This document shows positions 5,414-49,109 of a stretch of 64,000 bases of DNA, one piece after another. Origin of the DNA: an uncultured Anaerolineales bacterium. Its GTDB lineage: Bacteria; Chloroflexota; Anaerolineae; B4-G1. Position 1 is the first letter of the stretch, and each line of letters opens with the position of its first letter. Location: the NCBI GenBank assembly GCA_964542755.1, contig CAZIWL010000005.1, forward strand, positions 12,439-76,438. Reading direction: 5' to 3'. The position numbers were made by a program, and so were the translations under genes. The notes under the pieces are model-generated. The model saw nothing but the letters and a program-made list of their open reading frames with translations, ran no database searches and was not told the origin of the DNA.

Positions 5414-6877
5414 ATGGTCAGGAGTATCGAGGGGCCCGGAAAGGGCCTGGTCGGGGGACAGTACAAGCCGTTGACCGATGCCGAGGTGACGCGGATTCAC
5501 GAGGCATCGCTGGAAGTCCTGGAGCGGACCGGCGTGAACGTCCAGGAAGCGGAGGCGCTGGCACTCTTCAAAGAGGCTGGGGCGGACGTGCATGGAGACC
5601 GTGTCCGCCTTTCCAGGGCCATGGTCGAGGACGCCATCGCCACGGCGTCGTCCAAGGTGGTCTTGGCGGGCCGCGACCCGGACAATGACCTGATTCTGGA
5701 GGACGCACGGGTTCACATCGGGACGGGAGGTGCTGCTCTCCAGGTGCTGGATCTGGAGACGGGTACAATTCGAAAGGCGCTCTTGAGTGATGTCGGGGAT
5801 ATGGCGCGTATCGTGGATGCCCTGGACAATATCCACTTCTACCTCATCCCGATCTATCCCACCGATCTACCTGAAGAACAGGTGGAGATCAGCAAATACT
5901 ACGCTTCTCTGGCCAATACGACGAAGCACGTCCAGGCGGGAGTTTACACACTGCGGGGCATCCGCGATGTCGTGGCGATGTGTGAGAGGATCGCCGGCAG
6001 TCCGGAGGCCCTCCGTGCCCGGCCGCTCGTCTCGTTCATCACCAGCTGGATGGTCAGCCCGCTGAAGTTCGCCACCGACGTGACCACACTTCTCATTGAA
6101 GTCTGTCGCCAGGGTATACCCGTCGTCCTGTCGGCGGCCCCGATGGCTGGTTCGACGTCACCCGTGACGCTCGCGGGGACGTTGGTTCAGCTGAACGCCG
6201 AGCAGTTATCTGGCCTCACGTTGACACAGCTCGTCAATCCGGGGACGCCGGTCATCATGGGGCCGATCCCTGCGACGGCGGACATGCGGAGTGGAAAGTA
6301 CCTGGGTGGCTCCGTGGAGCTGGGTATCGGTAACGCGGCTATCACCCAGCTCGCTCACCGGTACGAAGTGCCCATCTACAATAGTGCCGGTATGACCGAC
6401 AGCAAGCTTCCGGATATTCAGGCCGGGATGGAGAAGGCTCAATCGGCGATTCAGGTTGCCCTTGCCGGTGCCAATTTCATCCACCACGCCGCGGGGATGC
6501 TCGAGGACATGTCTACCATCGCCTATGAGCAGTTCGTCATCGACAACGAGATGTTGGGGATGGCGATGCGCGCCGTACGCGGCATTGAGGTCGATGACGA
6601 TACGCTCGCTGTCGAGGCCATCGACCGGGTGGGCCCCGGGGGGCACTACCTGGCGGACGAGCATACGATGCGCTACATGCGCACTGAGCACTACTACCCG
6701 TCCCGAGTCTTTGACCGGCAGGGCCGTGACGAATGGGAGGACGACGGATCGACCGACGCGTGGCTCCGGGCCAGAGAGCTGGCTCGGGAGATCTTGCGTA
6801 AGCACGAACCGGAACTCCTGGATGGCGAGGCCGATGCCTGGATCAAGGAACAGTTCGCCCACACGCTGACCCTGTGA
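5414..6877 (+). CDS. MttB-superfamily methyltransferase (non-pyrrolysine; glycine betaine/quaternary amine methyltransferase-like)
   Basis: 487 aa, full-length MttB-like TIM barrel with no in-frame TAG. GGAGGG RBS. Confidence 0.85.
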   Translation: MVRSIEGPGKGLVGGQYKPLTDAEVTRIHEASLEVLERTGVNVQEAEALALFKEAGADVHGDRVRLSRAMVEDAIATASSKVVLAGRDPDNDLILEDARVHIGTGGAALQVLDLETGTIRKALLSDVGDMARIVDALDNIHFYLIPIYPTDLPEEQVEISKYYASLANTTKHVQAGVYTLRGIRDVVAMCERIAGSPEALRARPLVSFITSWMVSPLKFATDVTTLLIEVCRQGIPVVLSAAPMAGSTSPVTLAGTLVQLNAEQLSGLTLTQLVNPGTPVIMGPIPATADMRSGKYLGGSVELGIGNAAITQLAHRYEVPIYNSAGMTDSKLPDIQAGMEKAQSAIQVALAGANFIHHAAGMLEDMSTIAYEQFVIDNEMLGMAMRAVRGIEVDDDTLAVEAIDRVGPGGHYLADEHTMRYMRTEHYYPSRVFDRQGRDEWEDDGSTDAWLRARELAREILRKHEPELLDGEADAWIKEQFAHTLTL

Positions 6878-7019: not shown

Positions 7020-8474
7020 GTGACGGATCAACTGCCGATTCCGACGCTGCAGCCATTTAGTCGCGGCCTCTCTGACGAACAGGTGCGTGAGCTACATTAC
7101 GCCACGCTTGAGATCCTCTCAAGCACGGGAGTCGATATGCAGGACCCCGAGGGCCGTGAACTCCTCTTGGAGGCGGGCGCCTGGGAGTCTGACGACCGCA
7201 TCAAGGTGCCCGAGAACCTGGTGACCGACGCCATCGACGCGGCGCCCTCGCGCATCCCCATGTACGATCGATTGGGTAACCTGACGATGCCGCTGGAGCT
7301 TGGAAAGGTCTTCTTTGGCGCCGGGTCAGACACCACGTTCACGCTCGACGTGGAGACTGGCGAGCGCCGTCGTACCACAGCCCGGGATGTCGAGGACATT
7401 GCGCGCCTCTGTGACGCATTGGACAACATCGACTTCATCATGTCGATGAGCAATCCCTCGGACGTCCCCGCCGACGATCTGTACATCCACGAGTTCGCCG
7501 GAATGATCCGGGGCTCCGCAAAACCGAACGTCTACACGGCGAAGGACCGTGCCGACGTGGAGGATATCTATCGCATCGCTGCCGCCGTGGTCGGTGGCGA
7601 ACAGGCCTTGCGTGAGAGACCATTCTTCTTGCTCTACGCTGAGCCCATTTCGCCCCTGATGATCATCGAGGAATCGCTACAGAAGCTGATCTTCTGCGCC
7701 GAGAAGGGAGTCCCGTCAGGTTACATTCCCTCACCCAACATGGGGGGAGGGGGACCCATCACGCTCGCCGGCGCTCTCGCGGTCGGTAACGCCGAGTGTC
7801 TGCTGGGCCTGGTCATCGCGCAGCTGCTCAACCCCGGCACCCCGTATATCTACGGGATGAACACCGCCGCTATGGATATGAAGACCACCATCATCAGCTA
7901 CGGCAGTCCTGAGTGGCCCCTTGGCATGATGGCTCAGATGGACTTGGCCCGATACTACAATCTCCCGGCGTGGTCGGCTGCCGGAGCGAGCGACAGCAAG
8001 GTCGTTGACGCCCAGGTGGGCATCGAGATCACGTTCTCGGTCCTCGCCAACTTCCTGGCGCGCGCCACACTGGTGCACGACGTGGGCTACATTGAGTATG
8101 GTTCGACGTCCTCGATGGAAGCGCTGGTTATCGCCGACGAGGTCATACGCCAGACCCGCTTCCTTACGCAGGGCGTCGAGGTCAGCCCGCGCACGCTGGC
8201 GTTGGACGCCACAGCACGTGTGCGGCCTGGAGGTGGCTACCTGGCCGACGACCACACGCTGGACAACTGGCGGGAGGCGCAGTGGCACCCTGACCTGATC
8301 GACCGCGCTCGCTACGACGACTGGGTGGAGGCTGGCAGCAGGGATATGTTCACACGCGCCAACGAGCGGGCACGGAGGATCCTGAGCGAGCATGAGGTGG
8401 CGCCGCTGCCGGAGGAGGCCGAGAGCCTCATCGCGGAGATTCTGGAGAAACGAGCGTCCGAGCAGGGCGAGTAG
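7020..8474 (+). CDS. MttB-superfamily methyltransferase, second paralogue (non-Pyl)
   Basis: 484 aa, paralogous to 5414-6877. GTG start with GGAGGTGA RBS. Confidence 0.85.
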   Translation: MTDQLPIPTLQPFSRGLSDEQVRELHYATLEILSSTGVDMQDPEGRELLLEAGAWESDDRIKVPENLVTDAIDAAPSRIPMYDRLGNLTMPLELGKVFFGAGSDTTFTLDVETGERRRTTARDVEDIARLCDALDNIDFIMSMSNPSDVPADDLYIHEFAGMIRGSAKPNVYTAKDRADVEDIYRIAAAVVGGEQALRERPFFLLYAEPISPLMIIEESLQKLIFCAEKGVPSGYIPSPNMGGGGPITLAGALAVGNAECLLGLVIAQLLNPGTPYIYGMNTAAMDMKTTIISYGSPEWPLGMMAQMDLARYYNLPAWSAAGASDSKVVDAQVGIEITFSVLANFLARATLVHDVGYIEYGSTSSMEALVIADEVIRQTRFLTQGVEVSPRTLALDATARVRPGGGYLADDHTLDNWREAQWHPDLIDRARYDDWVEAGSRDMFTRANERARRILSEHEVAPLPEEAESLIAEILEKRASEQGE

Positions 8475-9771: not shown

Positions 9772-10124
9772 GAGGTGGCCGAAGATGGGCAGCTTGGTTG
9801 CCTTGGCGACCGCGAAGCGTGTGGGAAAGATCCGTTTCAGGAGTTGTACCAGCCAGAGCGGATTAGCGATTTCTATGTCTCCGCGGGTGCCTTCGACGCG
9901 AAACCGCCTCTCTCGTTGTCACCCTGATCAACTGCCTCTCTCGTCTCATCATGCACCGGGGAGTCTGCCGCCCACAGCCGCAGCTGGCCGGCGACCACGC
10001 CGGACCATAGTATACTCCTTTGACTCCAGATCACAACCGGTGAGACCGGGCGCTCTGGGGCTGCCCGGACCATTCGTTGGTGCTCAACAGACCGAGGCTT
10101 ACCAGCGCGTTGTATCGCGTGCGT

Positions 10125-10288
10125 GGCTGTGACAACGAGTGGTCGCCCCGCCCGGTGCGATACACCTTCCAGGTGCGTTGCACCTCACGAGCGTATGCTT
10201 GCCTCGTATGCCAGTCAAAACAGGTCAGTACACGGGGGCCAACGGGCTCCAAGCAGCGACCATCTCCGCGACAAGTCGTTAGCGCACC
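10125..10288. repeat. MITE-like interspersed element, copy A (about 165 bp, terminal inverted repeats, internal GGTGC-N3-GCACC palindromes)
   Basis: Shares the core ccggtgcgatRcaccttccaggtgcgttgcacctcacgagcgtatgcttgcc...gcgacaagtcgttagcgcacc with copies at 11211, 25264 and 50703. Confidence 0.8.
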
Positions 10289-12385: not shown

Positions 12386-13553
12386 AGGGAAGCCGCTGTT
12401 GCTTCTCATAGCGCTTCTGACCCTGGCCGCGTTAGCCTGCAACGCCCAGGAGCTAGTGTTCGAACCCACGCCCACCTTGCCTTCGCAGTTTGCCCCGAGT
12501 CCAGAGCCCACGCCCACACTTCTGCCCGCCTCCGAGGGCGACCTAAAGGAGTTGGATGCTCAAGACGCACTCCTGGCGAGCCTCTATCAGCGGGTCAATC
12601 CTGCTGTCGTCTATATCGAGGTCCTTATGCAGCGCGGCGGTGGACTCCAGCCCGTGAGCAGCGGGTCTGGCTTCATGATAGACAAGGACGGCTATGTGAT
12701 CACGAACAACCACGTCGTCGAGGGCGCCAACGCCCTGCAGGTCGTGCTGGCCGATGGCTCCGTCGTGAACGAGGTCGAGATCGTGGGGCGTGATCCCTAC
12801 TCGGACATCGCTGTCATTCGCATGGAGGCCCCGCCGGACCGCTTGACGCCTCTGGAGCTCGGAGACTCCGATGCACTGCGCGTCGGACAGAGGGTGATTG
12901 CTATCGGGAACCCCTTTGGTCTCCAGGGAACTATGACCTCCGGCGTGGTGAGCGCCGTGGGGCGGACCCTGACGTCTCAAGCACTGGAGGGCGGCTCGTT
13001 CTCCAATCCGGAGATTATCCAGACCGACGCATCAATCAACCCGGGGAACTCCGGCGGCCCGCTTCTGGACTCGCGTGGGCGCGTTGTGGGCGTCAACACG
13101 GCGATCCGTTCCGGGACGGGTGTCAACGCCGGGGTGGGCTTCGCCGTGCCCGTGAACACAGTCAAGCGCATTGTTCCGCAGCTCATCGAAAATGGGGCCT
13201 ACGACTACCCGTACCTGGGGATCACGTCCGATACGAGGTTCACTTTGGCCGAGTTGGCTGACCCGTTGGAGCTCCCCGTCGACTACGGGACGCTCGTCTC
13301 TGAGGTCCAGCCTGGCACGGCAGCGGCGGAGGCAGGTCTCCGGGGTGGTGATCGCGAAGTAGAGGTTATGGGCCTCCCGGTCGTGGCTGGCGGTGACATC
13401 ATCACCGCCATCGACGGCGAGCAGCTCCGGACGTTCGACGATCTCGTGGCGTATCTCGTGAGCGACACGGAGGTGGGACAGCAGGTGACACTGACTGTCT
13501 ACCGTGACGAAGAGCAGCTGGAGGTTCCAGTCATCCTTGGGCAGAGGCCGTAG
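12378..13553 (+). CDS. HtrA/DegP-family serine protease with PDZ domain (secreted or lipoprotein)
   Basis: Signal peptide with LAALAC. Trypsin-like catalytic motifs (HVV, DIAV, GNSGGPL) and a C-terminal PDZ domain. Confidence 0.85.
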
Positions 13554-18207: not shown

Positions 18208-18618
18208 AGGGATCCTCCTGTTTCGACCCCGGTCGCTCAAGGTCCTGGGGTGAGCGGCTAGTATAGCATCTCCTGACGGCGCTAACAACCCACCACTTGC
18301 GCTCAACCACGGCGCGCGGGGGAGGCTCTCTCATATGCAAATCCAACACGATTCCTACGAAACTCCTACGAGGAATCCGTATAATCTTGACGAGGCGCAA
18401 GATGCGTCGATCCTGTGGCAGCGCACTATGGTGCAGGAAGAGCGTGGGCGTTTCGAATTGCCGTGGTCTCTCCATGTGAGGTGATCCAATGGAGCATCAT
18501 GCACGACGGGGGCGCTTTCTGGCAATCCCGTGCGAGGGGTGGACGCTCTCTGATCATTGGGTTTGAGCCATGTTAGGCCTATTTGGATAGTTGTCTTTAG
18601 AATCGATTGGTGAGTGAT

Positions 18619-21210
18619 ATGAATCTAAACAAGTTCACGCAGAAAGCACAAGAAGCTGTGATGGAGGCACAGTCGCTGGCGGGCAAGTACAGCCACAGCC
18701 AGATCGAACCCGGGCATCTCCTGCTGGCGCTTCTGCGGCAGGCGGACGGCATCGTCCCACAGGTCGTCCAGAAGCTCGAGGCGAATCCGGGGGAGATGGC
18801 CCTGTCCCTTGAGGGCGAACTGAAGAAGCGGCCGAGGATTCGTGGCGCGGCAGCCCAGGTGGGCATGTCGCGGCAGCTCGGACGTGTACTGGAAGAGGCC
18901 CAGGAGACGGCTCAACGCATGCGCGACGAGTACGCGAGCACGGAGCACCTGCTGCTGGCTCTGACCGGCACCCAGGGGGGTGATGCTGCGCGTTTCCTCT
19001 CAGCTCATGGCGTCACGGAGGACGCTGTTCTCAGGGCACTGACCGCCATCCGGGGCAACCAGCGTGTCACCAGTCAGAATCCCGAGGCGACGTACCAGGC
19101 CCTGGAGAAGTACGGTCGCGATCTAACGGAGCTGGCCCGTGATGGCAAGCTGGATCCTGTCATTGGGCGCGACGAGGAGATTCGCCGCGTGATGCGCATC
19201 CTGAACCGCCGTACCAAGAACAATCCCGTCTTGGTTGGCGAGGCAGGTGTGGGCAAGACAGCGATCGCCGAGGGCCTGGCCCAGCGCATCGCCCACGGCG
19301 ATGTTCCCGAGGGGCTGAAGAACAAGCGCATTGTCGAGCTCGATATGGGGGCTTTGGTCGCTGGCGCTAAGTTCCGAGGTGAGTTCGAGGAACGGCTCAA
19401 GGCGGTGCTCAAAGAGGTTACCGAAGCGGCCGGTCAGGTCATCCTGTTCATCGACGAGCTCCACACCGTTGTAGGGGCTGGCGCGGCGGAGGGTGCCGTC
19501 GACGCGGGCAACATGCTCAAGCCGAAGCTCGCACGCGGTGAGTTGCACGCCATTGGTGCGACGACCTTGAACGAGTACCGGAAGTACATTGAGAAGGATG
19601 CGGCCCTTGAGCGACGCTTCCAGCCCGTCTTTATTGCCGAGCCGGGGGTCGAGGATACCGTCAGCATACTCCGCGGGCTCAAGGAGCGGTATGAGGTCCA
19701 CCACGGCGTGCGCATCAAGGACTCGGCCTGCATCTCGGCGGCCACGCTTAGTGATCGGTACATCGCAGACCGTCAGCTCCCAGACAAGGCCATCGACCTC
19801 ATCGACGAGGCTGCCTCACGCCTGCGCATGGAGATTGACTCCAAGCCGTCCGAGCTAGATGAAGTGGATCGACAGATCATGCAGTTGGAGATTGAGCGCG
19901 AGGCCCTCAAGAAGGAGAGCGACACGGCCAGCCGTGACCGGCTCGAGGACCTGGAGAGAGAGCTGGCTGACCTGGAGGAGACGCGGAAGGCCCTGCGCGC
20001 GCAGTGGGAGCAGGAGAAGAGTGCCATCCAAGCGGTCCAGCAGACGAAGGAGCAGATGGATCGAGTCCGTCATCGTATCCAGGAGGCCCAACGGACGCAC
20101 GACTACGAACAGGCATCGGAACTCCAGTACGGTCGACTTTCGGAGCTGCAGCGGCAGCTTGAGGCTCAAGAGGAGCGGCTCAACGAGCTCCAAGAAGGTG
20201 GTGCTATGCTCAAGGAGGAGGTCGGCTCAGAGGAGATCGCCGAGGTCGTCTCTGAATGGACAAGCATCCCCGTCGCCAAGCTCCTTGAGGGAGAGCGAGA
20301 GCGTTTGCTCCGCATGGAGGAGGCTCTCCACCGCCAGGTTGTGGGACAGGAGGAGGCCGTCGAGGCCGTCTCAAACGCCGTGCGACGGGCCCGCGCCGGT
20401 CTGCAGGATCCCAACCGGCCCATCGGGACCTTCATCTTCCTCGGTCCAACGGGAGTCGGCAAGACCGAGCTGGCCAGGGCTCTGGCCCAATTTCTCTTCG
20501 ACACGGAAGAGGCCATGATTCGCATCGACATGAGCGAGTACCAGGAGCGGCATACTGTCTCCCGCTTGATCGGTGCCCCTCCCGGGTACGTAGGCTATGA
20601 GGAGGCCGGTCAGCTCACTGAGGCCGTTCGACGCCGTCCCTACAGCGTGGTCCTTTTTGACGAGATCGAGAAGGCCCACCCGGAGGTCTTCAACACCCTC
20701 CTCCAGCTGTTGGACGAGGGCCGTCTGACCGATGGGCAGGGGCGGACGGTGGACTTCCGGAACACGATCATCATCATGACGAGCAACGTCGGCAGCCGCT
20801 GGATCAAGGACAAGGGTGTCGATGAGGCGCGAGACAAGGTGATGGAGGAGCTCGATCGCATCTTCCGTCCCGAGTTCCTCAACCGCATCGACGAGATCAT
20901 TCTCTTCCGCAGCCTCACCAAGGAGGACTTGCGAAGGATCGTCGACATCCAGATGCGCCATCTGCGTCGTCTGCTCGACGAGCGGAAGATGGACTTGCAG
21001 ATGACGGATGAAGCACGGCGTCATCTGGCCGAGGTCGGCTACGATCCGGTCTACGGTGCCCGTCCACTCAAGCGCGTCATCCAGCGGCAGGTGCAGGATC
21101 CGCTGGCCCTGTCGCTCCTCCGGGGAGAGTTCGACGAGGGCGACACCGTACGGCTGGAGGCACCTAACGGGCGCATTACGTTCAAGAAGGCCGAGGCTGC
21201 TTCGGCTTGA
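18619..21210 (+). CDS. clpB: Chaperone ClpB (Hsp100 disaggregase)
   Basis: Two AAA+ modules with Walker A/B. Long coiled-coil middle domain (about 130 aa). Clp N domain. Confidence 0.9.
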
Positions 21211-21515: not shown

Positions 21516-24017
21516 ATGATGAGGTTAGACCGTTTCACTGAGCGGGCGCAGGCGGCGGCCCAGCGGGCCGTCCAGATCATGGGGCGCTATGGACACACGC
21601 AGGTGGACACGGAACATATCTTCCTGGCGCTCCTGGAGCAACCTCAAGGCGCCATCTCCGACCTGATGGAACAGCTCGGCGCCGATACCGAGCAGGTCGA
21701 GAAGAAGCTCGACGAGGCACTGCAGGACAGTGCCAAGGCCAACGTCTACGGCGGCGGGGGCATGGGGCAGGTATTCATCACCCCGCGCGTGAAGCGCGTG
21801 TTGGACCGCGCGAACGCCGAGGCGAATCGGCTCAATGATGACTATATCTCCACCGAGCACATCTTCTTGGCCATCGCGAGCGAGAGGGACACGCTGCCCG
21901 CCCGCATCCTTCGAGAGCAGGGCATCTCCAAGCAACGGATCTACGAGGCCATCAAGGAGCTGCGGGGTGGCAAGCGAGTCACCGATCGACGAGCTGAGAC
22001 CCACTATCGGGTTCTGGAGAAATACAGCCGAAACCTGACCCAGATGGCGCACGAGGGGAAGCTTGACCCCGTTATCGCCAGGGATGATGAGATCCTCCGT
22101 TTGATCCAGATCCTCTGCCGCCGCACTAAGAACAACCCGGTCCTTATCGGTGAACCCGGAGTGGGCAAGACTGCCATCGCCGAGGGTCTGGCCCAGAAGG
22201 TCGCCGAAGGGGATGTCCCCGAGATTCTGATGGGGCGGGAGGTTGCCCAGTTGGATCTAGCATCAATGGTGGCCGGGACTCACTTCCGCGGCGAGTTCGA
22301 GGAGCGGCTGAAAGCGACCATCGAGGAGATCCAGAGTTCTGAAGGAGATATCATCCTCTTCATCGATGAGCTTCACAACGTGGTGGGGGCTGGGGCCGGC
22401 ATGGGGGCGCTCGATGCCTCAAACATGATGAAACCAGCGCTGGCTCGCGGTGAACTCCAGTGTATCGGGGCGACCACGCTCGATGAATATCGTCAATACA
22501 TTGAGCAGGATGGTGCCCTGGAGCGGCGATTTGCCCCCATCTTCGTCGATGAGCCAACAGTCGAGAAGGCTGTGGTCATGCTCGAGGGGCTGCGGGACCG
22601 ATATGAGGCACACCACAAGGTTCACATATCGGATCAAGCGATTCAGGCGGCTGCTCACCTCTCGCACCGCTACGTCACGGACCGCCGCCTTCCTGATAAG
22701 GCTATCGACCTGATGGACGAGGCCGCGGCCAAACTGCGCGTTGCCCTCCACACCCTCCCTCCGGAGTTGAAGGAGATGCACATTGAGCTCCAGCGCCTCC
22801 AGACGGAGATCGACGCGGCCAGCAATATGGAGGATTACCAGCGGGCGGCCGAGTTGAAGACCGAGCGCATCAACCTTCAGGCTGAGTTCAACCTGCAGCG
22901 CGAGATATGGCAGCAGGAGAATCAGCTGGACGAGACCATTGAGGAGAAGGACATCGCGGAGGTCATAGCCAAGTGGACCGGCATTCCTGTGGCGCGCATG
23001 CTGGAGACGGAGTCGGACAAGCTGCTCCGGATGGAGGATGCGATCCACGAGCGCATTATCGGACAGGAGGAGGGCGTCGCCGCGGTCTCCGATGCCATCC
23101 GGCGCGCCCGGTCCGGGTTGAAGGATCCCAGCCGTCCTATCGGCAGCTTCATCTTCCTCGGCTCGTCGGGTGTGGGGAAGACAGAGCTGGCCAAGGCGCT
23201 GGCATGGTTCCTCTTCGACGACGAGGATGCCCTGGTTCGCATCGACATGAGTGAGTATCGGGAGCGGCACACTGTCTCGCGCCTCTTTGGTGCGCCTCCG
23301 GGATACATCGGTCACGAGCGCGGCGGCCAGTTGACCGAGGCGGTTCGCCGCCGACCTTATCGGGTTGTCCTCTTTGATGAGATCGAGAAGGCCCACCCGG
23401 ACGTGTGGAACGCGCTTCTTCAGATTCTGGACGAGGGGCGGCTCACTGATGGTCAGGGTCGCATCGTGAACTTCCGGAATACCGTCGTGATCATGACGTC
23501 CAACGTCGGGACCTCGTTTGCTCATGAGGGTGGCACGCTAGGCTTCATGCGCTCCGAGGAGGACGGGCAAGGTGGCACGGTGAATCAGGAGCGCATCAAG
23601 CGCGAGCTCAAGGACACCTTCCGACCGGAGTTCCTCAACCGCATCGACGAGGTCATCGTCTTCAACAACCTGACGGTGGAGGACATGGAGAGCATCGTCG
23701 ACCTTCAGATGGCTGAGGTATCGGATCGACTCTCCGACGTGGGTCTGCAGGTCCGGCTGACTGACTTGAGCCGACGGTGGCTGGCGCGGAAGGGTTTCGA
23801 TCCTCAGTTTGGAGCCCGACCTCTTCGCCGTGCTCTCCAGCGGCACGTGGAGAGCCCTCTCAGCGTCAAGCTCCTACGGGGGGACTTCGAGCGCGGAGAC
23901 ATCGTGGTCGTCGACGTGGCGGACGATGATCTCATCTTCCAGACCAGCACTGAGTGGACGGAGCTGAGCGAGAAGACCAGGGAGCCCGTCGCCGGAGAGG
24001 TGAGCGTCGAGTCGTAG
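21516..24017 (+). CDS. clpC: ClpC/ClpA-type AAA+ ATPase (Hsp100 with short linker)
   Basis: 833 aa. Two N-domain repeats, two AAA+ modules, a short UVR-like linker ([25 protein letters not shown]) instead of the long ClpB M-domain. Confidence 0.85.
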
Positions 24018-39949: not shown

Positions 39950-40369
39950 CTACCGGGCTAGCTTGACCTCACTTGCCTCCGGGCCCTTATCCGACTCAGT
40001 CACGGAGAACGTCACTTTCACGCCTTCATCGAAGTCTCTCTCGTTCCCTTCAGCAATGGCGTTCTTGTGGAAGAAGATGTCCTCGCCGTTCCGCATGGTG
40101 ATGAAACCGTACCGCTTTCTCGGCTCATACCATTTAACCACTCCGGCCTGCTCGCCTTCCTCCAATGACTCTACCGACTCTACCGACTCTACCGACTCCA
40201 CCGACTCCACCGATTCCACCGACTCCACTGGCTGACCCTCTCGGCACTCCGGACAGAGAGAGGGCTCAACTTCCAACCCCATCTTTTCGAGCCGTCGTTG
40301 CTCCTCAACGGTGAAGACGTACTGCTTTTCGCACTTCTCGCATGTGGCCCACGTATCGCGGTGTGGCAC
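39950..40369 (-). CDS. Zinc-ribbon / (VES)n-repeat / cold-shock-domain protein
   Basis: CEKCEK...CPEC ribbon. VESVESVESVESVESVES linker. CspA-like GVVKWYEPRKRYGFITMRNGEDIFFH core. Confidence 0.75.
   Translation of the reverse strand: MPHRDTWATCEKCEKQYVFTVEEQRRLEKMGLEVEPSLCPECREGQPVESVESVESVESVESVESVESLEEGEQAGVVKWYEPRKRYGFITMRNGEDIFFHKNAIAEGNERDFDEGVKVTFSVTESDKGPEASEVKLAR
40167..40229. repeat. Seven tandem 9-bp units (GACTCYACC) in-frame within the CSD gene, encoding (VES)n
   Basis: gactctacc x3, gactccacc x2, gattccacc, gactccact. Confidence 0.85.
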
Positions 40370-44620: not shown

Positions 44621-45935
44621 TGCGGCTTTCTTATGCCTCAGCGCCGCCGATTGACCTGAGGCGCCCGGCCATTGCACTCTATCTGCACGTACCGTTCTGC
44701 CGAGCGCGATGTGCATACTGCGACTTCGATACGTTCGCAGGCCTGGAGGCGTTCATCCCTGCCTACGCAGACGCCCTGGCGAGGAAATCCGGGCGGCGGG
44801 CGAGCGGTGGCGACCAGCAACTGTCCCAACGATCTATTTCGGTGGTGGTACCCCCTCCCTTCTGCCCCTCCAAGTTGTGGACGATCTCGTGGATGCTCTG
44901 CATACCGCCTTCGATCTATCCCAGGGTGTGGAGGTCAGTTTTGAGGCAAATCCCGGCACCGTCAGTCCAGACTACCTGTGCGGACTTCGGCAACTGGGCA
45001 TCAATCGCCTAAGCCTTGGGATCCAATCCGCCGATGACGGCGAGCTGGAGAGATTGGGCCGCGTTCACAGTTGGCGTGATGCGGTGCTGGCGGTCGATTG
45101 GTCTCGAAAGGCCGGGTTCGATAATCTGTCTCTCGATCTCCTGTTTGGCGTCCCTGCTCAGTCTTTGAGTGACTGGGAGGTGACCTTGGGACGTGTGATG
45201 GGGCTCGACTCGGAGCATCTCTCGCTCTATGGCTTGGTGATCGAGAAGGGGACACCCCTCGCCGAGAGGATACGACGCGGCGACGCGGTGCCTGTGGAGG
45301 ACGATTTGGCAGCCGACATGATCGAGTTGGCGGAGGAGATGCTCGCCGACGCTGGGTACTTCCACTACGAGATCTCCAACTGGGCCCGGACCGGGATCTC
45401 GCCCCTGGAGGGAGATGCTCGCTGGTGGCCGGAAGGCACCGCCAAGGCATTGGGCTCCGTCTTGTGCGAGAGGATCACGGGCCGGGTCTGTCACCATAAT
45501 CTGACCTATTGGCGAAATCGACCGTGGTTGGGGCTGGGTGCGGCGGCGCACTCCTGGATGCCGCCTGGCTTACCGCCCCGCATCGTGAACTCTGGGACGG
45601 CGTCAATCGGTGGGCAGAGATGGGCGAACCCAAGACATCCACAGGACTACGTCGCCTCCATGTCGAAGACGGTCGGTCTTCCCAGCGTCGAGGAGGTAGA
45701 GGTCATCGACCCTCAGCTAGAGATGGGCGAGACGATGATGCTCGGGTTGCGTTTGGCAGAGGGTGTGCGTGCTCGGCGTTTTGAACAACGCTTCGGTCGC
45801 TCGCTGGTCGACGTCTTCGGCGGCGAGCTGGATGAGCTCCGTGGTCTTGACCTGGTCACCTGGGACGGCGTCGTGGCACGGCTCACCGCGCGCGGCAGGC
45901 TCCTGGGCAACCGCGTATTCGAGCGTTTCATCTGA
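44617..45935 (+). CDS. HemW/HemN-like radical SAM protein, interrupted by an apparent 1-nt frameshift near 44776-44784
   Basis: N-terminus (LYLHVPFCRARCAYCDF) in one frame to about 44788. Remainder (EEIRAAGE..TIYFGGGTPSLL..) in the -1 frame from about 44781. The two ORFs overlap and together span a HemW. Confidence 0.65.
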
Positions 45936-46540
45936 TGGACTTCGCGGCCCGATCGACTCTCGAAGTGGGGCTTCTTTCGGACACCCATGTCCCGTACCGG
46001 ATGAAAGAGCTGCCGCGGACCGTCCTTGACGCTCTCGACGGCGTCGACCTTATCCTCCACGCGGGCGATGTGGACAAGCCTGCGGCGCTGGATCTTCTAC
46101 GCGAGCTGGCCCCGGTATTTGCGGTGCGGGGCAACGTCCACGTGCTCGACCTGTCCACCGGCGGCGCATCACTCCCCGCGTCGCTGGAGCTGTGTCTGGC
46201 CGGTCGGTCCGTGATCGTCACGCACGGGTCTCTCCGCGGACTGAGCAGCCTCTGGTTCAAGGGGCGGGACGTCATTCTGCGTTTGTTGGATGCCAGCGAA
46301 AAGGCCCGTTTCAATGCCCGTGTCGCTCAAAGGCTGAGGGCCCTTCATCCGTGTGCCGATATCATCGTCTTTGGGCACACACACCGTGCCTTCACCGAAT
46401 GCGTCGGCGACACACTCCTCGTCAACCCAGGGGCGGTCTGTCCAACCTTGAGGGAGGTCCCGACCGTCGCGCGCATGACCCTGAACGATGACAACGTCCA
46501 GGTACACGTAATGACCCTTGACCAACCGGGGTCCTGGTAG
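45935..46540 (+). CDS. Metallophosphoesterase (YfcE/MJ0936 family)
   Basis: GLLSDTH, HAGD, GNVH, GHTH metal-binding motifs. Confidence 0.8.
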   Translation: MDFAARSTLEVGLLSDTHVPYRMKELPRTVLDALDGVDLILHAGDVDKPAALDLLRELAPVFAVRGNVHVLDLSTGGASLPASLELCLAGRSVIVTHGSLRGLSSLWFKGRDVILRLLDASEKARFNARVAQRLRALHPCADIIVFGHTHRAFTECVGDTLLVNPGAVCPTLREVPTVARMTLNDDNVQVHVMTLDQPGSW

Positions 46541-46779
46541 CCACCGAAGAAACCAGAATGTCGATCCGACGTCGTCTACCCCGGTCCGCGGTACATCTCT
46601 TACTCTCGATCCCTGTAGATTTTCAGCGCCGTGATTGACTCGGTTCAGTCCCTGGACTTCTTCAGGAGGTCGTCTCCGATCCTCGCGCGTATTCTTGGCT
46701 TGGTAGCCCTTCCGTTGACAGAATCTCGGGTCAGGGCCATAATCGGTGCAAACCGAATAGAAATAGAAAGGGGGACCCA

Positions 46780-48105
46780 ATGGCCGAAGAGAACGTTCGA
46801 GGCAAGGATGAGGTGGTGCGGATCATCGAAACTGCTCAGACCCTGGGGATCGAGGTGGACGAGTCTGACGTAAGTCAGTGGCTGACGGCCATGGCTGCCT
46901 CGGGCTCGATGGATTGGGATGTGGACGAAGAGGTGGGTATCTTTGGCCACGAGATTACGCTCCTTGATTTTGACAAAGCCTCATTGGAACGCTATCGGCG
47001 CATCGCCGACGTCGTCCAACTGCCCGATCTGCCCAACGTGGAGACGGCCATCAGCCTGGCGGGCAGTGCGGCTCAGGGGGTAATCCAGCGCTATCCGGGT
47101 GATGCTGACTACTTCGAGCGTGTCAACATCCACGCCGAGACTCGTGAGGAGGCGTGCCAGATCCTGGCGGATCTGATGCGGGACAAGGCCTTGAACACGT
47201 TCCAGGGGCCAGACTACCATCTCATCGAAGTCAAGTTCGGAACGTGGAAGACGGACGTGGTGAAGGATGGGGAGCACCTCCCTGCCGGGTCCCCCATATC
47301 CTGGAGCGCTGAGGAGGTCCAGGAGGGCACGATGCGCGTCTTCCGCGAGTCCGGCGATCTCTGGGAGGTCGCCTGGTCATACGGTGCCCTTGATCCCGGA
47401 TGGTGCAAGATGGACTGGGTGATTGCGGAGCCCGAACGCGGCCGAGTGGTGAACGCCAGCAACATGTTGGACGTCACTTGGGAGTCCCCTGACGGCGAGA
47501 TCGTGCCCCTCGACGGTTTCTTGGATCCCTATTTCCAGGAGGTCTACCTGGAAGCGGAGTCGGTCCCGCTGTTCACCAAGTTGAGTCGCCAGGTTTCCCC
47601 TCGGGCGCTGGACGACTACGTAGGTCAGATCACGGGCGAGGTCGAGAAGTATACCCACGATCCAGCGAACTACGGTAAGGCGGCCAAGCGCCTCTACAAT
47701 ATCTTTCGCCTCACGGGGCAACATGGGGCGGCAGCGCTTATCAGAGAGCTCTTCGACGAGCCGGCCGCTCTCCTCTATCAGGTCTGGTCCCTCATGGATA
47801 CCATCGATGATGCAGGCAGCGCCGATTCGACGATCGATCGTAGGACCCTGGCGCGCCAGACCGACGAGCTGATCCGAAATGTCGTCGACACCACTGAGGG
47901 GCCCATGGAATCGGAGATCGTCTCCGCTCTCCTCCGGCTGCGCGATGACGTGACCGGTTGGATAGAGCTGGGTGAAGAGCGGGGAGAGTTCATCGCGGAT
48001 TCGCGGGAAAAAGTGGAGAGCCTGGTCAACAAGTACTTCAAGGAGAAACTGCTGGCGATCCCGGACGCTCGCGACTTCATCAGGGCCCTGAGGGTCGAGC
48101 ACTAG
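46780..48105 (+). CDS. Polymerase-beta-superfamily nucleotidyltransferase of unknown function (GS-x3-G-x7-GDAD motif, cGAS/OAS/CD-NTase-like), with large helical C-terminus
   Basis: ISLAGSAAQGVIQRYPGDADYF matches hG[GS]x9-13DxD. 441 aa. No recognisable partner effector. Confidence 0.45.
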   Translation: MAEENVRGKDEVVRIIETAQTLGIEVDESDVSQWLTAMAASGSMDWDVDEEVGIFGHEITLLDFDKASLERYRRIADVVQLPDLPNVETAISLAGSAAQGVIQRYPGDADYFERVNIHAETREEACQILADLMRDKALNTFQGPDYHLIEVKFGTWKTDVVKDGEHLPAGSPISWSAEEVQEGTMRVFRESGDLWEVAWSYGALDPGWCKMDWVIAEPERGRVVNASNMLDVTWESPDGEIVPLDGFLDPYFQEVYLEAESVPLFTKLSRQVSPRALDDYVGQITGEVEKYTHDPANYGKAAKRLYNIFRLTGQHGAAALIRELFDEPAALLYQVWSLMDTIDDAGSADSTIDRRTLARQTDELIRNVVDTTEGPMESEIVSALLRLRDDVTGWIELGEERGEFIADSREKVESLVNKYFKEKLLAIPDARDFIRALRVEH

Positions 48106-48119
48106 GTCTCAGTTCCCAC

Positions 48120-49109
48120 GTGCTCCGTTTCCTCCGCCGGACTCTCCACCCGGCCTGGTACCAGGGTAATCACCAGGGTCCGCCCTATTTCGAGGGCTGG
48201 TACTTTAAGCTGGTCGACGCGACCCAGCAGCATCGGATCGCGGTTATCCCTGGCATCTTCAAGGCGGCCGATCTGGAGAAGGGACATGCCTTCATCCAGA
48301 TCCTTGATGGCGGTTCCGGCGAGGCCACGTATCACGCCTATGCGACGGATACGTTCCGCGCCGCGGAGCGCGAGTTCGACGTCTCCATCGGCGATAGCCG
48401 CTTCACTCTCGAGGGCGTAGTCTTGGGTGTCGATTCGGAGGATCGCTCTCTGACCGGTCAGGTGCGTTTCACGGATGTCACACCCTGGCCGGTCAGATGG
48501 ACCTCTCCCGGGGTGATGGGGTGGTTCGCCTGGATGCCCCTTATGCAGACCTATCACGGGGTTCTCAGTCTTGACCACGCCATTCAGGGCTCCCTCGTCC
48601 TTGACGGAGAACGCATCGATTTTGACGGAGGCCGAGGGTACATCGAGAAGGATTGGGGGCACTCTTTCCCCGAGGCGTGGGTCTGGACCCAGACAAACCA
48701 CTTTGGCCGGGAAGGCACTAGCCTCACGGCCTCCATTGCCACGATACCGTGGTTCTGGACGTCCTTCCGGGGTTTCTTGATCGGTCTCTGGCACGGAGGT
48801 CGTCTCTACCGCTTCGCTACCTACACCGGGGCGCGCATTGAGGAACTCGTCATAGACGAGGACGCGGTCAGCCTGGTCGTCGGCGATGGGACGTACCGCC
48901 TATCGATATCGGCCCATGGCGCGTCTGGAGGTGTCCTGCGTGGGCCCACAGGGCGAGATATGCTCGGTCGTGTGCCCGAGTCCCTGGATGCGCGCGTGAG
49001 GGTCAGGCTCACCGCTCGGCGATCCGGAAGTTCTGCCGTGGTCTTCGAAGGCGTCGGGGAGCACGCGGGATTGGAGATCGTTGGAGACCCGGACGGCCTG
49101 ATCTCCTGA
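48120..49109 (+). CDS. Tocopherol-cyclase-family (VTE1/SXE1-like) protein
   Basis: N-terminal YFEGWYFKLVD matches the FFEGWYFR signature of the family. Confidence 0.55.
   Translation: MLRFLRRTLHPAWYQGNHQGPPYFEGWYFKLVDATQQHRIAVIPGIFKAADLEKGHAFIQILDGGSGEATYHAYATDTFRAAEREFDVSIGDSRFTLEGVVLGVDSEDRSLTGQVRFTDVTPWPVRWTSPGVMGWFAWMPLMQTYHGVLSLDHAIQGSLVLDGERIDFDGGRGYIEKDWGHSFPEAWVWTQTNHFGREGTSLTASIATIPWFWTSFRGFLIGLWHGGRLYRFATYTGARIEELVIDEDAVSLVVGDGTYRLSISAHGASGGVLRGPTGRDMLGRVPESLDARVRVRLTARRSGSSAVVFEGVGEHAGLEIVGDPDGLIS

Follow-up and report, generated by a model that had tools for sequence, protein, structure and literature searches.

A chromosomal polymerase-beta-superfamily nucleotidyltransferase family of Chloroflexota and its recurrent linkage to a Cap18/Exo-family exonuclease

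Introduction

Nucleotide chemistry built on 2'-5' bonds has hitherto been tied to antiviral immunity, through the oligoadenylate synthetases (OAS), cGAS, and the cyclic-oligonucleotide-based antiphage signalling systems (CBASS). OAS enzymes act as general 2'-5' nucleotidyltransferases, for which nicotinamide adenine dinucleotide (NAD+) is a ready acceptor (PMC4481073). The Exo proteins of CBASS, including that of E. coli upec-117, are reported to have no DNA or RNA nuclease activity, to cleave selectively the 2'-5' dinucleotide intermediates of cGAS-like enzymes as well as 2'-5' oligoadenylate, and to restrain their cognate synthase as negative regulators (Yan et al., bioRxiv 10.1101/2025.03.04.641389); in an earlier study, phage defence was not abolished by a catalytically dead Cap18. 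Two viral protein groups also enter the comparison: Mg662 of Megavirus chilensis, entitled "a new nucleotidyl transferase" by its depositors in the Protein Data Bank (PDB; 4AMS) and a nucleotidyltransferase (NTase) by virtue of that title and of its GTP complex (4XUL), and the Sputnik V21/OLV5 proteins, listed in the literature as of unknown function and without detectable domains. Here we describe a gene at 46780..48105 in a 64,000-nucleotide stretch of DNA (the window, positions 12,439 to 76,438 of contig CAZIWL010000005.1, assembly GCA_964542755.1) from an uncultured Anaerolineales bacterium of the Chloroflexota. A preliminary description had put forward its 441-amino-acid (aa) product as a divergent minimal NTase with a cGAS/OAS-like motif and no known effector partner, possibly a new signalling or nucleotide-modifying enzyme. 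The gene belongs to a previously undescribed family with ordinary chromosomal inheritance across Chloroflexota, and in several clades of that family its recurrent partner is, as assigned by sequence matches, a DEDDh exonuclease of the CBASS Cap18/Exo family. The 2'-5' phosphodiesterase family of this partner, the NAD operons that surround the gene elsewhere, and a structural likeness confined to giant viruses and virophages make the finding more interesting than it first appeared.

A new nucleotidyltransferase family

The open reading frame (ORF) runs on the forward strand, as do all window features below unless stated otherwise, from an ATG start to a stop codon at 48103-48105, and residues 91-112 of its product, ISLAGSAAQGVIQRYPGDADYF, carry the G-S...D-x-D motif, both exactly as first described. 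G-S...D-x-D is a low-information pattern, but a chance occurrence is ruled out here, because the motif is conserved family-wide and the predicted fold fits it. In a hidden Markov model (HMM) alignment of 201 family members (196-198 sequences per column), the motif residues are 98-99% conserved: G95 and S96, which form the hG[GS] motif (47062..47067), occur in 195/196 and 194/196 members, and D108 and D110 of the predicted metal-binding D-x-D (D108-A-D110, 47101..47109) each in 194/197. S96, D108 and D110 are among just 12 invariant columns of a 36-sequence alignment that reaches down to ~30% identity, and other near-invariant charged residues are K210, D212, D231, D245, D249, K300, R304, N307 and R310. 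The third acidic residue had been sought in a downstream KTDVVKD segment; this segment (aa 157-163) is a variable loop, deleted in divergent members, and the third carboxylate is probably E150 (LIEVKFG, 47227..47229), a candidate placed by canonical NTase topology rather than by inspected coordinates. Of 198 members, 178 have E and 9 have D at position 150 (187/198, 94%).

The predicted model has the order of elements expected around such residues. Strand beta-1 (87-94) ends at G95-S96, which opens helix alpha-2 (a short helix, 95-99); strand beta-2 (108-118) opens with D108-x-D110 and leads into a long helix; and I149-E150-V151, an h-[DE]-h pattern, lies inside strand beta-3 (146-155). With three predicted domains in 441 aa, the protein is ill described as "minimal". 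An N-terminal domain (aa 1-79, 46780..47016) of helices and a beta-hairpin is specific to the family, conserves W34, G56, D63 and R73 in the 36-sequence alignment, and is possibly regulatory. The catalytic alpha/beta domain (aa 80-258, 47017..47553) bears extra beta-sheet insertions, and a C-terminal all-helical domain (aa 259-441, 47554..48102) contains the basic motif NYGKAAKRLYNxFR, near-invariant in the alignments at K300, K303, R304, N307 and R310, whose surface probably binds the triphosphate or the acceptor. The N-terminal extension of about 90 aa and the long helical C-terminus of the preliminary description are both borne out, the core starting at strand 87-94 and residues 259-440 being all helices.

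AlphaFold2 modelling of the full-length protein from a diverse alignment gave a predicted local distance difference test score (pLDDT) of 90.1 and a predicted template modelling score (pTM) of 0.87, and the catalytic domain modelled alone a pLDDT of 91. In Foldseek searches of the PDB, the full-length model had Mg662 as its sole significant match (4XUL and 4AMS, probability 1.0, E 6.5e-7 and 3.5e-6), with template modelling (TM) scores of 0.49-0.59 across more than 420 columns, and Mg662 alone was again significant with the catalytic domain as query (4AMS, 4AMQ and 4XUL, probability 1.0, E 9e-5 to 3e-4). The next full-length match, FAM46C/TENT5 (6W36), came at E 2.7e-3 and probability 0.82 with a TM of 0.18-0.23; FAM46 and CCA matches together span TM 0.15-0.23 and vanish when the catalytic domain is the sole query. 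OAS1, CCA-type enzymes and ClCdnE, a cGAS/DncV-like nucleotidyltransferase (CD-NTase), fall to noise level in the full-length search (E 0.05-0.3). For OAS1 (1PX5), E was 0.045 with the full-length model and 0.26 with the catalytic domain, at probabilities of 0.28-0.38, and in the catalytic-domain search OAS1 and ClCdnE rank among kinesins. Among predicted viral structures (BFVD), 15 matches had E <1e-3 (best 1e-12), all from giant viruses or virophages: the Zamilon, Yellowstone Lake and Qinghai Lake virophages and mavirus, and Fadolivirus (annotated "V21 virophage-like"), Tupanvirus, Klosneuvirus and Pithovirus ("nucleotidyl transferase"). At the level of predicted fold, the nearest relatives of the family are Mg662-like viral proteins. 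Because of motif and predicted fold, we assign the 441-aa protein to the polymerase-beta NTase superfamily as a new family with a putative NTase activity.

Sequence comparison did not link the family to any described one. The 441-aa protein matched nothing in Pfam, NCBIfam, PADLOC or the PDB sequences (phmmer), 36 family members had no Pfam match at E up to 1, and the family profile found nothing among all PDB sequences, Mg662 included, at E up to 10. Among the models in Pfam and PADLOC are those of SMODS/Mab-21 type and of Cdn. PADLOC returned no CD-NTase match for the query or for P0128, P0152 and P0122, and hhalign gave a probability of 0.2% for the 36-member alignment against CdnC (L173) and a type II CD-NTase (L174), both genuine Exo-associated enzymes from classical plasmid CBASS operons. 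As far as sequence models and predicted fold can tell, the protein is not a CD-NTase, an OAS, a GlnE/GlnD or a minimal NTase. Of the earlier proposal, what stands is a divergent and novel NTase with an active-site signature, given the family-wide catalytic residues and the Mg662 fold match; membership among cGAS/OAS-like enzymes does not, with no Pfam or PADLOC match, hhalign at that level and OAS1 and ClCdnE in the noise. Assignment to a housekeeping family such as GlnE/GlnD, named at the time as the case that would overturn the proposal, found no match in Pfam or NCBIfam, and the GlnE/GlnD-fragment and antibiotic-NTase readings were dropped for want of any model match.

A broader version of these readings makes the protein a small-molecule or protein nucleotidylyltransferase, whether aminoglycoside/lincosamide ANT-like, GlnE/GlnD-like or the component of an MNT-type toxin-antitoxin pair. 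The G-S...D-x-D signature is common to those families, and the window holds an APH-family kinase, a histidine phosphatase and a phosphoesterase; nevertheless, we consider this very improbable, given that the 36 members yield no NTP_transf_2, KNTase, GlnE, GlnD or DUF match, that the window neighbours are not conserved and no HEPN/antitoxin-type partner accompanies the gene, and that the Cap18-like partner described below would be left unexplained.

The family is large. A collection of 5.8 billion proteins holds at least 5,954 homologues, every named one of which is a "hypothetical protein" from metagenome-assembled genomes (MAGs) of Anaerolineae, Thermoflexia or other Chloroflexota; they reduce to 493 representatives at 50% clustering, and the gene is found in at least 572 species-level genomes. 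Identity is ~75% within the query's clade, and conservation is vertical. A scan of IMG/VR viral contigs found no member, and the housekeeping neighbours across loci include parAB, dnaG-rpoD, glyQS, nadABC and nadE; this wide genome spread, the core-gene neighbours and the lack of a viral-contig match suggest that the family is housekeeping in character. Copies 53-58% identical to the query were also met in a Helarchaeota MAG (L036), an uncultured archaeon (L040) and an Armatimonadetes MAG (L083), on short contigs; Anaerolineae copies fall in that range too, and mis-binning of Chloroflexota contigs, not horizontal transfer, is the most likely origin of these cases. Two members stand out for their architecture: P0213 (1291 aa) has a C-terminal family domain behind AbfB, F-box-associated (FBA), C-type-lectin-like and PLAT domains, a eukaryote-like arrangement, and P0192 (1067 aa) has one behind a PQQ-type beta-propeller.

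Linkage to a Cap18/Exo-family exonuclease

Gene neighbourhoods were compared at 163 loci, comprising 80 from genomes, 80 from a metagenome scan that was seeded with the ~30%-identity clade (most of the loci it returned were 50-65% identical), and three from look-up of encoding contigs, with the neighbouring genes clustered de novo. The dominant neighbour in the fetched DNA is a gene of ~190 aa, present at 63/163 loci and referred to here as Exo. Exo immediately precedes the NTase, in the same orientation, at 42/73 eligible loci of the clade with 50-57% identity and at 5/6 of the 40-50% clade, and the two genes often overlap by 4-8 bp at the NTase start. Within the clade of the query, Exo directly follows the NTase at four loci (L019, L126, L119 and L138) and lies 2-4 kb away at two (L009 and L013); at L170 the order is NTase-Exo with a 4-bp overlap, and at L095 the two genes are convergent. 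From these three arrangements we argue for selection on the linkage over inherited synteny. The association also appears from the other side: of 5,411 homologues found in a reverse search from the exonuclease, four genes were picked blind from long contigs, and three of these lie right next to a full-length NTase of the family (HMM E ~1e-180), in neighbourhoods containing parAB or dnaG-rpoD/glyQS. At L019 the gene pair is closely followed by two tandem molybdenum-cofactor (Moco) riboswitch aptamers (9973-10284; 78 and 76 bits), which precede a 920-aa gene and are unrelated to the NTase finding.

The family identity of the partner is clear-cut at the sequence level. It matches the PADLOC CBASS "Effector/Exonuclease" model PDLC00753 over nearly its full length (E 2e-67 to 2e-69) and E. 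coli upec-117 Cap18 (7T2S) at E 3e-43. The 63 Chloroflexota partners have a median identity of 46% to Cap18, about as close as the plasmid Exo proteins of Klebsiella, Acinetobacter and Pseudomonas are to it, and retain the DEDDh, NPFG and GPxP motifs.

These matches bear on two other explanations of the gene pair. In one of them the NTase would tail or repair RNA 3' ends, as poly(A)/TENT-like or CCA-like enzymes do, and its DEDDh neighbour would be a trimmer resembling RNase T or RNase AS. Such a pair would suit the core, vertical distribution amid housekeeping genes, the place of FAM46C/TENT5 next after Mg662 in the fold search, with CCA-type enzymes among the weaker matches, and the weak matches of the partner to Pfam Rv2179c-like and RNase_T. 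The partner is, however, far nearer Cap18 and CBASS Exo than RNase T, which it matches at just E 2e-4, and the Cap18/Exo clade is reported to be inactive on both RNA and DNA (bioRxiv 10.1101/2025.03.04.641389); no RNA-binding domain was detected, and the FAM46 and CCA matches combine low TM scores with disappearance when the catalytic domain is searched by itself. An RNA-tailing enzyme is in our judgement unlikely. The other explanation takes the partner at face value and sees a bona fide CBASS-like antiphage system, with a divergent CD-NTase and an effector encoded elsewhere, Exo being found in proteobacterial plasmids within classical type II and type III CBASS operons. This is very unlikely indeed: besides the failure of CD-NTase models and hhalign to recognise the NTase, SAVED, STING, TIR, phospholipase, HORMA or Cap2/3 neighbours recur nowhere in the 163 loci, and both the vertical conservation and the housekeeping contexts without integrases speak against a defence system.

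NAD genes, DUF3786 and other recurrent neighbours

Besides Exo, the recurrent neighbours among the 163 loci are DUF3786, nad genes, a major facilitator superfamily (MFS) transporter, glyQS, and smaller clusters of which some, c37 and c36, have no annotation. At 22 loci, L132 (2318-3019) being one, the DUF3786 gene comes after the NTase at +4 bp in the same orientation, with the order Exo-NTase-DUF3786 in 17, and is a possible third component alongside the pair; the literature searched gave nothing on its function. In about 10 loci of the 57-65% clade (L027-L033, L094, L115 and L121; for example L032 6350-10189), whose NTases are 66-100% identical to one another, the NTase gene is the X of a nadA-nadB-X-nadC array on one strand, in which the flanking products score well above the curated cutoffs (NadA 414 bits against 294, NadB 553 against 453, NadC 314 against 198). 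At 13-15 loci of another clade, the Exo-NTase pair has nadE and its CN-hydrolase partner 2-3 kb upstream. The 64-kb window has neither DUF3786 nor NadA, NadB, NadC or NadE.

Polymerase-beta NTases normally use hydroxyl, not phosphate, nucleophiles. This tells against the most direct interpretation of the nad contexts, that the NTase is a NAD-pathway enzyme proper, either a non-orthologous nicotinate or nicotinamide mononucleotide (NaMN/NMN) adenylyltransferase standing in for NadD or some other NAD-forming or recycling transferase. The two nad contexts favour such a role, as does the lack of a canonical HxGH NadD motif in the fetched loci and the window, the stretches that this search covered; but NAD genes occur at only ~25/163 loci, none of them in the query's clade or the window, and the far more widespread Cap18-like partner would go unexplained. 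We regard a NAD-pathway enzyme as quite unlikely.

A possible 2'-5' writer and eraser

Tentatively, and at somewhat less than an even chance, we favour a reading in which the family makes a 2'-5'-linked nucleotide product as a housekeeping-style synthase and the Cap18-like enzyme works against it. The NTase, acting with metal, would move a nucleoside monophosphate (NMP moiety) from a nucleoside triphosphate donor to the 2'-OH of a nucleotide acceptor, and the linear, 2'-5'-linked product might be a dinucleotide, a short oligomer, or an adenosine-containing cofactor (NAD, for instance) nucleotidylated at the 2' position. By removing this product the Cap18-like enzyme would set its level, so that the two would form a writer/eraser pair, one that differs from CBASS in being chromosomal, vertically inherited and effector-free. 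A 2'-5' product is proposed because the partner's family is reported to hydrolyse 2'-5' bonds only. That the NTase may work like an OAS/cGAS-type 2'-5' synthase is plausible because a Cap18/Exo-family exonuclease abuts the gene in other clades, an analogy drawn from the partner and not from the NTase's own sequence.

The reported ability of OAS to use NAD+ would allow a speculative unification of the Exo and nad-operon signals. A NAD acceptor is suggested by the nadA-nadB-X-nadC and nadE contexts together with the OAS precedent for NAD-2'-pN, and one can picture a core-genome module, distinct from CD-NTases, in which a Mg662-type transferase writes a 2'-5' linkage, maybe onto NAD or a NAD precursor, and a Cap18-type phosphodiesterase erases it. 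We consider this fuller picture possible though doubtful.

Several observations count against the proposal of a 2'-5' writer and eraser. No Exo homologue exists anywhere in the 64-kb window, the linkage is loose in the query's own clade (6/26 loci), and it is missing from the 57-65% clade (0/20 loci) and from the clade below 40% (0/4). The 163 loci are not phylogenetically independent and include some duplicates, such as L029/L094. The 2'-5' specificity was measured, as a preprint reports, on proteobacterial Exo proteins (from Serratia, Vibrio and E. coli), and the Chloroflexota orthologues stand at the 46% identity given above. Neither a receptor nor an effector that could answer a putative signal came to light, likeness of fold to the makers of 2'-5' bonds (OAS1 and cGAS-like enzymes) is at noise level, and the reactions of the family and of Mg662 are putative.

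If the proposal is true, a large unannotated enzyme family, with at least 5,900 sequences and a presence in at least 572 species genomes, would define a new NTase branch, and it would place 2'-5' nucleotide chemistry in a new context, a non-defence, housekeeping use in bacteria. It would do so through a simple and testable two-protein writer/eraser pair, open a possible route to NAD-linked regulation in a phylum that is abundant but poorly studied, and provide the first functional lead to a biochemical role for the Mg662/V21-like ORFans of giant viruses and virophages. It would also suggest that CBASS took its Exo checkpoint from such a system or has it in common with one; that the Cap18/Exo family is not confined to CBASS bears on the evolution of this checkpoint.

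The window and its immediate flanks

The window is ordinary chromosome. It carries MttB-family methyltransferases, Ser/Thr kinases, two Clp-type chaperones, a DnaJ-VWA gene, O-antigen ligases, a two-component system, XdhC, MFS, APH and HisPhos genes and a HemN-like radical-SAM enzyme, and no integrases, mobile or defence genes were seen in its 64 kb. The gene order is retained in an 83%-identical relative, and the neighbours are all different in a 74%-identical one. Within the window the NTase gene has, as read from the DNA, a promoter-like site of its own between unrelated metabolic genes: a predicted sigma-70-like match (TTGACA-17 nt-CATAAT, 46715..46743, 11/12 consensus positions) whose 3' end lies 37 bp before the ATG, in a region where two such sites were observed against 0.8 expected from shuffles. 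A Shine-Dalgarno-like AAAGGGGGA (46767..46775) lies 5-10 nt before the ATG. No riboswitch or other cis-regulatory RNA was found upstream of the NTase in the window or in six representative operons.

The flanks are as the preliminary description had them. Directly upstream lies a YfcE-type metallophosphoesterase (45935..46540; Pfam Metallophos_2 E 3e-29, TIGR00040), and 15 bp past the NTase stop codon starts a tocopherol-cyclase-like gene (48120..49109; Pfam PF14249, E 5e-25) that is possibly co-transcribed with the NTase in the window. It had been suggested that conservation of the phosphoesterase be checked. The gene is kept directly upstream in the query's subclade (the window, L001, L006, L010, L013 and L014; NTase identity 73-83%), also at loci whose other flanks differ, is absent elsewhere, and lies near the NTase in 4/80 genome loci; because the adjacency is confined to this subclade, the metallophosphoesterase is a local neighbour and not a family-wide partner. 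It occupies the directly upstream slot that the Cap18-like phosphodiesterase holds in other clades, and L013 has both, which could be coincidence or could mark a second, subclade-specific phosphodiesterase partner. The tocopherol-cyclase-like gene, found at just 2/80 genome loci, was rejected as a partner, as were HemN, APH, HisPhos, MFS and XdhC (0-2/80 each). As for the statement that the gene has no known effector partner, the window indeed has no CBASS-type effector, whereas the family elsewhere has the CBASS-associated Cap18/Exo protein.

Three further features of the window concern other genes. An Rfam PYLIS_3 match, the mttB pyrrolysine-insertion element, lies at 6392-6491 (49.1 bits; gathering score 38) within the uninterrupted ORF 5414-6877, which with its adjacent paralogue at 7020-8474 belongs to the MttB family (Pfam MTTB E 7e-123 and 4e-91); the host may be a non-pyrrolysine MttB homologue with a PYLIS-like structure, or the RNA model may have caught coding similarity. 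On the reverse strand at 39950-40369, a protein with a cold-shock domain and a zinc ribbon has a perfect (Val-Glu-Ser)x7 tandem-repeat linker, whose opposite strand reads (Ser-Thr-Asp)n; its L001 homologue is annotated zf_Tbcl + CSD. Two adjacent ClpB/ClpC-type AAA+ chaperone paralogues of 867 and 833 aa occupy 18607-21210 and 21516-24017.

Comparison with known systems

The CBASS loci of E. coli upec-117 (type III), Serratia and Vibrio share with the family the linkage of an NTase gene to a DEDDh Cap18/Exo gene, an accessory association seen in the family but not in the window, and by analogy the product of the NTase or an intermediate would carry a 2'-5' bond degraded by Exo. In contrast to CBASS, no effector, HORMA/TRIP13 or Cap2/Cap3 genes stand at the NTase loci, no effector or nucleotide-sensor gene recurs among the annotated clusters of the 163 loci, and close fold similarity to solved CD-NTases was not found; classical CBASS resides on conjugative plasmids next to integrases, whereas the setting of the NTase family is neither mobile nor island-like.

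With OAS1 the proposed likeness is one of reaction, namely transfer of an NMP to a 2'-OH, opposed by a dedicated 2'-5' phosphodiesterase, and the use of NAD+ as acceptor by OAS would parallel the nad-operon contexts (PMC4481073). Unlike OAS1, the family has no OAS1_C or NTP_transf_2 match in Pfam, and nothing in it points to activation by double-stranded RNA or to an RNase L-type receptor. FAM46/TENT5 comes second among the solved fold matches and likewise combines an NTase with a helical domain, but these are eukaryotic RNA-tailing enzymes with no Exo-type partner and with the low TM scores noted above.

Mg662 stands closest. The literature searched gave nothing on it, its reaction included, beyond the PDB titles. 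Identity to the family is 11-16% in structural alignments, with no similarity detectable at the sequence level. In both, an elaborated alpha/beta NTase domain precedes a helical one, and to this architecture the Chloroflexota family adds an N-terminal domain of ~80 aa, and the family, unlike Mg662, is chromosomal and vertically inherited in its phylum.

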